64,000 nucleotides of DNA, from the NCBI RefSeq assembly GCF_056712565.1, contig NZ_CM160072.1. One strand, given 5' to 3'. Of the stretch, positions 18,001 through 21,000 are shown in pieces; within the stretch, counting starts at the first letter, position 1, and every line of letters starts with the position of its first letter. Position numbers: made by a program.

Positions 18001-21000
18001 TTTTTTTCATCATCAGGTTTATCGACATCAGCAACAGGTTGTGGCTTATCACCTTCCTGTTGTGATGGATCACCAACTGGAGCAGGGTTATCACCTGTAG
18101 GCGCTGACGGTTCTGACGCAGCCGGAGCTGCTCCACCATCGACTGGTTGCTCATTGCAAAGACGGCGATACAGCAAACGCTCAAATAAATTCATGATCAC
18201 TCCTGTTCACTGGCCTCTTTGGCCATCTTCAAATACTGTTCAGGGCAATGCGCCATAACGCGCTGAAACAGTTCCAGCGCCAGATTGCGTTGCCCCTCAT
18301 TAAATGCCATTGCCATAGCGTCCATCGGTGAGATAGCGGAAAACACACGGCCTTTCTCCAGCACCGACCAGACAACGCGACGCCCCTGTTCACTGCTCAT
18401 GACAAAGCGAATGTCATCAATTTCACGCTGCGCCATGTCACGTTGCTTACGGGCGTTTTCTTCTTTCAGTTGATCGTCTTCGTAATCTGTCATTGTGATT
18501 GCCCACCCTGACCACTAACTGCATTCGCCATAGCTGACAAAACACTCGGATCCGAAGTTTTAGCTTCACTTAGCGTCTTGGCACCCTGTGCCGCCGCCAT
18601 CCCCATCGCCATCATTTGTTGCTGCTGTTGTTGCTGTGCCCGTTGCTGGCGAGCCTGCTCAACCTGTTCCTGCGGAACAATGACGGTTGGAGACACTCCG
18701 GACATATCAGCGAATGCATCGATCGCCTGATCAACGTTGAGTTTGTCGAGAGCTTCTGGTTTCGCTTGCGCAAGTTGACCAATGAAGTTAACCGTGGACG
18801 CCAGACTGGACAGGCCGATAGACTTCTGCGCCTGAGCCATGACGGAAATGTATTCGACCTTCAGGGGCATGCCTTCCATCGCGTCAGGCGGTGGCGGCAG
18901 CATGTTTTTACGCACCATCATCGAGAAAGAGCGATCAATGAGAGGATTAAGACATTCGTCGTTCAGGCGCTCCAGAACCGGCCCCAACATCAGAAGTTTT
19001 TCTTCTTTCATTTCGATCACCGCTTCCACAGGCATCGAGCGGGTATTGATGTTCTGCAACATCATGAACAGATCGACAAAGTAGGCGCTGTTAATGATTT
19101 GACGAGTGTCCTGAATGTCTGCCACCAAATCTGCTGTACTGGGGTTAACCAGATAAGCAGGCCTGAAACCATCCTGACCAGTAATCTGATCGATATACGT
19201 GATGTCGCCAGGAAGAAGGGAGGCACGCTGATTCTTGAGGGAAGTCGGAGCAACCATCGGCGGATTGGTGGCTTTATCAATCAACTGCGACTTGCGCTTC
19301 TGGAGAAGCTGCAATGCCTTAACAGGTCCAAGCGCCAGCATACCCGGGCATGATGATCCATAAACATCTTCGCCGTTAACTTCCCAGCGCGGAGCCATAA
19401 TTGGAAACTCATCGAATCCGGACTCACGCAACAACTTGTCGTTATCGCCACCAACCTCGTAATAAACCGATTTGAATGGCTTGTTCTTGCTATCCAGCTT
19501 CGATGTATCGCGGTCAATGTTCGGGTAAACCGAATGCATCACTTCAATCCACTTCTCGTAGGTGCCGCTTTCCCACATGCTTTTTACGGATTCGCTGACG
19601 TTATTTAGCCCGAACTCCTGAACAAGCTGACGAACAGTCATAGAGAACTTGCGAAAACAGGTGTCCACACTGCCACGAGGTGAGTTAGCCAGGTAGTAAC
19701 TGCCTATCGGGAATGGCATTGTGCGAATGATGTCCTCGTCATCCTCCAGCACTGCCATTGCACCAGTGCTGTATGTGCCGAGGCTTCCGTATAACTGCGG
19801 CAGCGACTGATAGAGATTCGACTTATTGAACATATCGTTCATGCGGTTCTGCACCGCCTCAAGCCACAACTTAACAGGGCCATAATCCATCATTTCAGGA
19901 TCTGGCGTAGCCAGGCGAAACCACGGACGCGCGGGGCTTGTGATGCCTGACATCATGCCGCTGGCGAGAGTGCGCGCCGCCATAGTCCCGGTCGAATCAA
20001 TAATGCGTGTATTGCGTCGATCGTTACGGTTGACCTCAGAAGTCAGAAAGCGGGAACCACGCGGGTTGATGTAATCACTCAACTCGCGCCAGTGCGGCTC
20101 GAACGACTGACGCTCGCTTTCAAGTTGTGCGAACTGTTTGTTCAATCGCTCTTTAGTTGTTTCCGCCATTTCAATGACTCCGGTTACTGACCAAGCAGCG
20201 TTTTACCGCTGGTATTAGCGGTTGATGTGTCGCCCTGAGAACCGGTAAGCAGCGTAGAACTACGACCAGCAGCAGCGCGACGGCGACGTGTTTCTTCGTC
20301 GCGGGCATCAACAACGGCGGCATCCTGCTCCTGTGGTGCTGCCTGAACTTCTGGTGTTGCAGGCACTGATGGTGAGCTACCCATGCACATATCAATGACT
20401 CCGTACGCAATTAAATTATTACCAATTTAACCACATATGATTTATTTATCGTAGAAGGTTGACATTTAACGCGTTAATTATTACCTTTCAGGTAACCAAG
20501 AGCTCATTCTGGTTACTAACCTGACTGGCTTGTCGTTAAATTAAACAGGTGGAGTGAGCTTTTATTTTGAGCAGTACGGCGTATGGCACATGCGCCGATA
20601 GCGGTCTGGATACGTTTAAGGGGCACCCTCCCTTGCTCGGGCAAACGAACCAGGTAGCCGGAATGTGCAAGTCGAGCGGTTTTATTCCGCGCACGGGGAT
20701 TCACCATCCCGGCGATTCGGTGTGACGCCTCGGAAGAGACGAGGGTACAACGATGAGAGCATTTATGGAGCCGCGACAAAGTGTGGCGCCTTAACAGGCT
20801 AAGTGCTCTCAGCGTTGTGGCATTAGCTCAGTTGGACAGAGCAACCGCCTTCTAAGCGGTTGGTCGCAGGTTCGAATCCTGCATGCCACGCCAGAATCAC
20901 GCCTAAGGACCGTGATGCCAGAAGTTCCAGGTGCTTGGCGGTGATGGTTTCCCTTGAAGGACTATCACCGCCCTTTTTACAGCAGGACGCCATTGCGATG

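Follow-up and report, generated by a model that had tools for sequence, protein, structure and literature searches.

A new family of pseudoknotted RNA carried as a mobile module by temperate enterobacterial phages

Introduction

Structured RNAs in the early leaders of phages are a known kind of element, and we describe here a new family within it, represented by an RNA encoded at 20498–20818 on the plus strand of a 64,000-nucleotide stretch of Escherichia coli DNA (assembly GCF_056712565.1, contig NZ_CM160072.1; called the window below). The P4 CI and P1/P7 C4 RNAs (RF01695) are small, stable RNAs that lie in the untranslated leader of an early operon under repressor control and are matured by RNase P. 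Species 1 and 2 of T4 (rnaC and rnaD) are stable phage non-coding RNAs (ncRNAs) that are co-transcribed with tRNAs and released by tRNA processing. The put element of HK022 (putL and putR), also present in HK75 and as a “putL-like” site in HK639, is a structured RNA located just past the repressor-controlled PL promoter of lambdoid phages that lack N (PMC9378689). GOLLD and ROOL are prophage-associated RNAs, often adjacent to tRNA genes, with complex covarying folds (bioRxiv 10.1101/2024.12.08.627333).

A sequence-only reading of the window had marked 20500–20816 as GC-rich, with several stem-forming segments and no convincing open reading frame (ORF), and had offered three options: the promoter and leader of the adjacent tRNA, a structured RNA, or the remnant of a second tRNA. 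It proposed an Rfam search and an alignment for compensatory base changes as checks, and named a lack of both transcription and structural conservation in related prophages as the result that would count against it. That interpretation is partly supported by the present analysis.

Results

Compensatory base changes define a structured RNA

Thirty modelled base pairs were scored in two sets of sequences: a MAFFT alignment of 41 sequences that pre-dated any model, and 82 distinct sequences subsequently aligned to the model. In the 41 sequences, 95.6% of cells were paired, against 29–44% when the partners were slid, and 14 of the 30 pairs showed double-sided changes. The larger set gave 96.3% of cells paired (27–44% with partners slid) and 15 double-sided pairs. 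None of 500 shuffles matched any of the observed covariation measures, and the U–G pairs assign the structure to the plus strand. The base pairs are kept by compensatory change across diverged homologues, and the element is therefore a conserved structured RNA of a new family. The structural conservation on which the sequence-only reading had staked itself proved to be strong.

The region 20498–20818 also forms a fold much more stable than expected by chance. For 20560–20830, the plus strand gave −107.4 kcal/mol (z = −3.2), a value equalled by none of 200 shuffles. The stem-forming segments seen earlier are above chance, and their helices covary across relatives. Our covariance model, R1, had a single full-length match in the window (139.8 bits) and one match in each of 85 loci. 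In a second candidate at 35659–35784 (plus strand; 10.6 bits, E 0.086), the helices are broken, and it is most likely noise. Covariation, a single copy per locus and the mobility between unrelated phages described below strongly support the structured-RNA option.

With Rfam 15 (4227 models), the region gave no match at E ≤ 10, nor at gathering score in a scan of the window, and the homologous regions of seven related loci gave none at E ≤ 1; the proposed search thus placed the region in no known family. The idea of a second-tRNA remnant is not supported, as ARAGORN and the Rfam tRNA model, the latter even at E ≤ 10, found nothing in 20500–20816. We found no description of the RNA in Rfam, record annotations or the openly accessible full-text literature. 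It could be among the roughly 10,000 phage RNA candidates that one published catalogue lists without names (PMC10690425).

The lengths of the variable segments fall into all nine combinations modulo 3, and no reading frame is conserved among the homologues: of the frames on both strands, none remains open in more than 38 of 81 variants. With no frame kept and lengths in all classes modulo 3, the region is not coding, which bears out the earlier judgement that it holds no convincing ORF. The ORF at 20516–20779, described as Arg-rich with a poor start, does exist; it lies on the minus strand, begins with TTG and would encode 87 amino acids (aa), 11 of them Arg. Two GenBank hypothetical proteins, mEp460_037 (locus L001, 2943–3311, minus strand) and mEp390_036 (L017, 2511–2753, plus strand), overlap the RNA. 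These calls and the window ORF are probably spurious.

Architecture of the RNA

The RNA consists of a core of ~170 nt (20577–20744), or ~245 nt with its closing hairpin. Five helices (P1, P1b, P2, P5, P6), an H-type pseudoknot and the variable hairpins P3 and P4 make up the core (helix names are unrelated to the phages P1, P4 and P7). The parts, all on the plus strand, are as follows.

20498–20563, plus strand: leader hairpin P0, with a 13-bp closing stem AAGAGCUCAUUCU / GGAGUGAGCUUUU and a variable top
20577–20597, plus strand: P1, a 9-bp hairpin CGGCGUAUG-GCA-CAUGCGCCG
20602–20605 with 20657–20660, plus strand: P1b, stacked on P2
20606–20609 with 20650–20653, plus strand: P2
20610–20649, plus strand: variable domain P3, enclosed by P1b/P2
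20653–20671, plus strand: invariant block GGUAGCCGGAAUGUGCAAG, mostly unpaired in the model
20672–20695, plus strand: variable hairpin P4 and linker, GCGG (20676–20679) with CCGC (20687–20690)
20696–20699 with 20707–20710, plus strand: hairpin P5, loop UUCACCA
20702–20705 with 20719–20722, plus strand: H-type pseudoknot between loop CACC and GGUG, the latter inside the conserved GGCGAUUCGGUGUGAC
20728–20744, plus strand: hairpin P6, CCUCG-GAAGAGA-CGAGG
20747–20818, plus strand: closing hairpin P7, ACAAC..GAUGAGAGCAUUUA ... UAAGUGCUCUCAGC..GUUGU, with a branched top

In helix P1, 97–98% of cells were paired and three pairs changed on both sides, for example from G–C to A–U in 38 of 82 sequences. 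P1b was paired in 100% of cells with one-sided changes only (U–G to C–G and C–G to U–G), while P2, separated from P1b by a 3-nt GUA bulge between their 3′ strands, had three double-sided pairs, such as C–G to U–A in 19 sequences. The P3 stems differ in sequence and keep their pairing (GGAUU/GAUCC, GGGCU/AGCCC, AGGUG/CACCU, AGCCU/GGGCU). P5 was paired in 98.8% of cells, with three double-sided pairs, and in P6 each of the five pairs was double-sided somewhere (CCUGG/CCAGG, GCCGG/CCGGC, CCCGG/CCGGG), with 96.8% of cells paired. The pseudoknot was paired in 98.8% of cells and showed C–G to A–U in six sequences (AACC with GGUU, the mEp460 type); since the pseudoknot lay outside the search model, this count is unbiased by model fitting.

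The block GGUAGCCGGAAUGUGCAAG showed no difference in any relative found by BLAST. A pairing of its AUGUGC with GCACAU of the P1 loop and 3′ strand was considered, and since both sides are invariant it was omitted from the model. P4, which was read by eye and left unscored, is formed in relatives from unrelated sequences (UGC/GCA with a GAAA loop, CAUGC/GCAUG, CGUG/CACG, GGCA/UGCC) and is nearly absent in some of them. GUGC/GCAC was rejected as a universal closing stem of P4, being true of some subtypes only; P4 is best described as a variable hairpin.

Long hairpins of the same type, P0 and P7, flank the core. An equivalent of P0, ACAAC..AAAGCGC...GCGCUUUCAG..GUGUG, stands at the same place in relatives. 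P7 (20746–20818) folds with −35.8 kcal/mol (z = −6.2), and its last two pairs involve tRNA bases +1 and +2. Most members have such a long closing hairpin after P6; it is missing in phages P1 and SJ46. In single-sequence folds, D6 and BUCT708 rebuild the P7 helix from other sequences, e.g. CAACAGGAAAAGGCG / CGCCGUUUCCGUUG, and MAFFT with RNAalifold on P7 of seven phages recovered the shared helix, with D6 and BUCT708 misaligned. The consensus of the P7 3′ strand is GUGCUCUUUCCGUUGUGG (window 20803–20819 and relatives), in which UGCUCUUU resembles boxA.

Two further observations concern P7. Four loci without it (L035, L075, L087, L124) carry a canonical boxA, GCTCTTTAACAA, ~45 nt after P6 and at the same place. 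Free-standing hairpins of the P7 type (ACAAC-UGAAAGCGC ... GCGCUUCCA-GUUGUG) occur further down lambdoid early-left leaders, as in L017 (~2860–2960) and L066, about 240–420 nt past the core and often right after an intrinsic terminator.

Distribution of the RNA among phages and genomes

BLAST against phage records found near-identical copies in phiV10-type phages and ~80% identical copies of window ~20576–20823 in unrelated phages. Carriers include the lambdoid phages mEp460, cdtI, 2H10, Stx2c and some Stx2a phages; P1, P7, D6, SJ46 and RCS47; phages of Klebsiella, Enterobacter and Salmonella; and a phage deposited as a Stenotrophomonas phage. Lambdoid copies lie 150–250 nt past the repressor gene on the same strand. 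Those of P1, P7, D6 and SJ46 lie between trnI and ban, in P1 inside the C1-controlled ban operon, and the copy of Klebsiella phage SopranoGao follows the lysis genes. The strand of every copy agrees with local transcription.

Among 5426 complete E. coli genomes, 1839 contain the module, at 1919 chromosomal and 553 plasmid places. The only annotated feature under the copies in these 1839 genomes is the tRNA; identical and near-identical copies carry no annotation at 20500–20816 in RefSeq (PGAP) or GenBank, and the very detailed record of phage P1 has none over the RNA. The invariant 19-mer GGTAGCCGGAATGTGCAAG was found as an exact pattern in more than 120 IMG/VR contigs. Shortened by its first base to an 18-mer, it matches 27 stretches in species-representative genomes, of which 24 are full-length copies by the covariance model; the other three (Azonexus and two contigs of metagenome-assembled genomes, MAGs) were unsupported by the model and rejected. 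Enterobacterales account for nearly all full-length copies; two short MAG contigs, which are probably mis-binned, come in addition.

Epsilon15 keeps only a truncated stub (L005 2549–2619, 30 bits): helix P1 and the beginning of P2 remain, and a large internal segment is deleted. The published epsilon15 record assigns an RNase III site to this area, on the other strand. In E. coli 129130 (L170 2847–3548), a 700-nt unannotated gap between an XRE/S24 repressor gene and yfdP-yfdQ-yfdR-yfdT contains the RNA, a tRNA-like domain and two terminator-like hairpins, an arrangement of the KplE1/CPS-53 prophage type that is typical of more than 1000 E. coli genomes. These findings indicate that temperate enterobacterial phages carry the RNA as a mobile accessory module.

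Promoter, tRNA punctuation and downstream modules

In the window, the RNA lies in the packaging and head end (18.5–23 kb) of an epsilon15/phiV10-like (Uetakevirus) E. coli prophage, where a plus-strand insert with tRNA-Arg(TCT) and a 123-aa Gp49-family ORF is placed between minus-strand genes. The noncoding span is 20391–21083. The neighbouring features are listed below.

18490–20169, minus strand: portal gene of the epsilon15/phiV10-like prophage
20184–20390, minus strand: 68-aa ORF
20459–20495, plus strand: putative early promoter and operator, −35 TTGACA at 20459–20464; the operator role is conjectural
20817–20893, plus strand: tRNA-Arg(UCU) (ARAGORN; Rfam tRNA model, 73.3 bits)
20896–20916, plus strand: small hairpin AUCACG..CGUGAU (fold)
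20917–20981, plus strand: small RNA (sRNA)-like module and intrinsic terminator, stem 20937–20972, U-tract to 20981 (terminator scan, fold)
21057–21081, plus strand: second intrinsic-terminator-like hairpin, GCCCGG-UUCG-CCGGGC and U-run
21554–23029, minus strand: large terminase gene

The segment 20500–20816 is situated between a short AT-rich block and tRNA-Arg. It is GC-rich relative to the adjoining upstream block (GC 0.52–0.58 at 20500–20800, 0.38–0.43 at 20300–20600), but not relative to the whole window, so the earlier description holds only locally.

The putative promoter carries the repeat ATTATTACC at 20477–20485, with a second copy ~50 nt upstream, and the inverted repeat TTACC-N5-GGTAA at 20481–20495. 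It has a poor −10 and failed a consensus scan; TTGACA, ATTATTACC and TTACC..GGTAA are kept in phiV10-, SPN1S-, Klebsiella- and Erwinia-type relatives.

The tRNA-Arg is the only tRNA in the window, and P7 ends at its +1 both here and in Klebsiella and Salmonella relatives. The tRNA promoter-and-leader option is right to the extent that the RNA is the physical 5′ leader of the tRNA; however, the sole promoter-like signal lies upstream of 20500, and the same RNA also occurs without a tRNA and is therefore not merely a tRNA leader. The P1 core starts 14 nt past the CCA of tRNA-Ile. In tRNA-less relatives, a cloverleaf-like tRNA-like domain (GUGGUGAAUGCGCAGGCUGAUGCGC ... CCGGAGAUCAGCACCGG-CACCAC) begins at the same GUGG and replaces the tRNA after P7, as in mEp460 (L001 3239–3372) and about 40 other loci. 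This domain combines an acceptor-like stem of 8 bp (GUUGUGGUG/CACCACAAC) with the D-like hairpin GCGCA-GGCUGA-UGCGC, a central arm that varies from 20 to 130 nt and the T-like arm CCGG-AGAUCAGCA-CCGG, and its two loops are complementary (GCUGA/UCAGC); it gave no ARAGORN call and no Rfam match. In one Superficieibacter locus, the core comes after the tRNA-like domain.

Relatives, too, carry the hairpin AAUCACGCCUUAGGACCGUGAU and a terminator module behind the tRNA or tRNA-like domain, and the second terminator of the window stands directly before the ribosome-binding site of the Gp49-family ORF (ATG 21092). The terminator module of lambdoid leaders, composed of AAUUGCUGUGUGUAGUCUUGG, a hairpin and a U-run (L016 2631–2750; many others, e.g. 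L017, L034, L103, L110), is similar to the 3′ half of the host sRNA RprA, which bears the seed, at 50.2 bits against an Rfam cut-off of 70. The module at window 20917–20981 has the same position with a different “seed”. The terminator-ended modules may therefore form a phage-borne sRNA family with swappable seeds, and the phage early leaders look like operons of ncRNAs separated by tRNAs or tRNA-like domains.

Rfam also identified other RNAs in the window. An isrK RNA at 2097–2173 (plus strand, 74 bits) is immediately followed by a C4 antisense RNA at 2192–2278 (plus strand, 79.5 bits); they constitute a P1/P7-type (immI-like) immunity RNA pair of the same prophage, which is also present in the rightward operon of mEp460 (L001 706–894). 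An sroE sRNA at 56193–56284 (minus strand, 116.6 bits) marks that end of the window as host chromosome, not prophage.

Discussion

Our analysis revealed a folded, conserved and mobile RNA that has the orientation of its neighbouring transcription units and lies beside tRNA or tRNA-like punctuation and small-RNA modules. We favor the interpretation that it is a discrete stable RNA, cut from an early transcript by tRNA-type punctuation and acting in trans on a conserved host factor; we give this a probability of roughly 0.45. The timing of transcription, the processing enzymes, the stability, the trans action and the host partner itself are all inferred. Upon removal of the repressor or upon infection, the early promoter (about 20459–20495) would fire and produce a polycistronic noncoding unit of P0, core, P7, tRNA-Arg and the small terminator-ended RNA. 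RNase P would make the 3′ end of the RNA by cutting at tRNA +1 (20816/20817), and RNase III or RNase E, which are double- and single-strand-specific, respectively, might trim the remainder at the long P0 and P7 hairpins. The freed RNA would adopt a compact pseudoknotted body in which the invariant unpaired GGUAGCCGGAAUGUGCAAG, GGCGAU.CGGUGUGAC and the GAAGAGA loop could serve as a binding surface. It would then bind, and so sequester or re-tune, a factor conserved across Enterobacterales, as 6S RNA, CsrB and Y RNAs do.

The ~80% identical copies in unrelated genomes and positions point to autonomy and mobility, and the tRNA or tRNA-like punctuation beside the core supports excision and action in trans. 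So do the dicF-like region and tRNAs of the P1 ban operon and the RprA-like 3′ module with its terminator in lambdoid leaders. The downstream genes are unrelated (ban, yfdP, the Gp49-family ORF, a tRNA), and a read-through transcript in the window would run antisense into terminase; both facts speak for an action in trans over one in cis. Several points weigh against this interpretation. In phages P1 and SJ46, the core without P7 runs into the ban ribosome-binding site and therefore looks like a 5′ untranslated region (UTR), not an excised RNA, and lambdoid copies occupy the usual place of antitermination signals (nut, put). P0 is the weakest part of the model, since its fold (20496–20576) has −20.6 kcal/mol with a z of only −1.4. 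The invariant blocks have no antisense sites in the window beyond themselves, which fits protein binding without proving it.

The alternative with most to commend it, which we regard as possible but doubtful, is that the RNA is a cis-acting processive antiterminator. Here, the nascent RNA would bind RNA polymerase and read through the terminators between the early promoter and the first genes, possibly with the help of Nus factors that the boxA-like P7 3′ strand would recruit, as a functional analogue of HK022 put with a different, larger fold that serves lambdoids without N. In lambdoids, the RNA indeed lies a few to ~50 nt past a promoter-like −35/−10 that follows an S24-type repressor gene and a terminator, and terminator-like hairpins precede the first ORF: in mEp460, a hairpin of −21.2 kcal/mol followed by UCUUUUU and an 86-nt hairpin followed by GUUUUG; one in BUCT708; and two in the window. 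The first downstream ORFs are not N-like (PHROGs), HK022-type put was not found in 1.57 Mb of element-bearing loci, helix P1 faintly resembles put stem I (ACGGCG...CAUGCGUCG), and many P7 3′ strands read UGCUCUUU. A related N-less phage has been suggested to use a put-like mechanism (PMC12315714), which also counts in its favor. A protein-free early-antitermination device, in which a ~170-nt pseudoknotted RNA and a boxA-like hairpin replace N plus nut, or put, can be proposed only tentatively. Several observations count against antitermination. No covariance model or sequence profile links the RNA to put; each locus has a single copy, and the rightward operon lacks a counterpart; and the four loci with a canonical boxA right after the core show that the core coexists with a nut-like site. 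Read-through in the window would be antisense to terminase, and antitermination would disturb the formation of the terminator-dependent small RNAs that follow the module. Phage P1 has no terminator between core and ban, and in epsilon15 the downstream gene is intact despite the core deletion. Regions of 700 nt downstream of 138 distinct loci did not clearly differ from controls in the share with a terminator hit (113/138 downstream, 85/138 on the opposite strand, 101/128 upstream), and the comparison was dropped as evidence; the terminator finder missed some clear terminators.

It is quite unlikely that the RNA is a cis-regulatory leader or 5′ UTR, such as a ligand- or protein-sensing switch or a 5′-end stabiliser for the downstream element. 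In every case something follows it on the same strand, in P1 directly the ban ribosome-binding site, and its complex pseudoknotted core with invariant unpaired bases recalls riboswitch aptamers. Nevertheless, the downstream elements are mixed (tRNA, tRNA-like domain, ban, yfdP, Gp49-family ORF, genome end), there is no conserved expression platform on the 3′ side, where P7 is a closed hairpin missing in some members, and the riboswitch models of Rfam gave no match, not even at E ≤ 10. Slightly harder to accept is a processing scaffold, that is, a structured spacer without its own function that aids folding and release of the neighbouring tRNA and small RNAs. The adjoining tRNA or tRNA-like domains and the long flanking hairpins would suit it, but the 19-nt invariant block, the covarying pseudoknot and the ~170-nt architecture, which are kept across lambdoid, P1-like and epsilon15-like phages and also at sites with no tRNA close by, are not to be expected of a spacer. 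That the region is a protein-coding gene, namely the 87-aa ORF on the minus strand, or what is left of a second tRNA is extremely improbable and, as far as sequence analysis can show, refuted: the ORF exists and the mEp460 and mEp390 records annotate proteins over the homologous stretch, but the frame is not kept, indels fall in all classes modulo 3, the U–G pairs place the structure on the opposite strand, and both tRNA searches were empty. Some explanation other than those listed here also seems unlikely.

Our study shows that a well-supported structured RNA in about a third of complete E. coli genomes had escaped annotation, although its carriers include the textbook phage P1, Shiga-toxin-converting phages and Klebsiella and Salmonella prophages. 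Its site behind repressor-controlled early promoters suggests synthesis at prophage awakening or infection. If the RNA binds a host factor, it would give temperate phages a new means of manipulating enterobacterial cells. If it instead modifies RNA polymerase, it would explain how lambdoids without N or put pass early terminators; such an antiterminator would cover read-through of the early-left leader in N-less E. coli lambdoid prophages (KplE1, mEp460 and Stx2c types) and would be a portable module borrowed by P1-like and epsilon15-like phages. Under either reading, this compact, pseudoknotted and highly conserved RNA is fit for structural study, and phage “leaders” emerge as ncRNA operons punctuated by tRNAs or tRNA-like domains.

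Comparison with known systems

The sole likeness to 6S RNA, CsrB and the bacterial Y RNAs is the proposed logic of a stable RNA that binds a conserved host protein; there is no match in sequence or structure, and the relation is one of analogy, not membership. Species 1 and 2 of T4 (rnaC, rnaD) belong to a virulent phage, differ in size and fold and have no sequence relationship to our RNA. GOLLD and ROOL are much larger, occur in other bacterial groups and form multimeric assemblies; both are in Rfam and gave no match here. The C4 and CI RNAs are about 70–87 nt long, with a simple fold, and are antisense to sites in their own operon; the C4 model RF01695 matches 2192–2278 of the window and not 20500–20816.

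The HK022 put system was compared most closely. The covariance model of the element and an nhmmer profile gave no match on the put sites of HK022, HK75 and HK639, the last two taken from their record annotations. Conversely, a put profile found all known put sites (E 2e-20 to 3e-12) and none in the 1.57 Mb of element-bearing loci. The short likeness between helix P1 and put stem I, seen by hand, was confirmed by none of these searches, and homology to put was rejected; the likeness is kept as a lead only. In location, the lambdoid copies agree with put, as an S24/HTH repressor gene and a terminator stand upstream and a −35/−10-like promoter lies a few to ~50 nt before the RNA. In phage P1, the RNA is instead 2.3 kb from the promoter P1ban, and in the window the promoter is only putative. 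No pair of the putL/putR type was seen, with one model match per locus in loci spanning both sides of the repressor gene. The put RNA is about 70 nt long (126 nt as annotated in HK639), consists of two stems in a V shape and serves both early operons. In contrast, the RNA described here has a 170-nt, multi-helix, pseudoknotted core, is present in one copy per phage and has also spread to P1-like and epsilon15-like phages.

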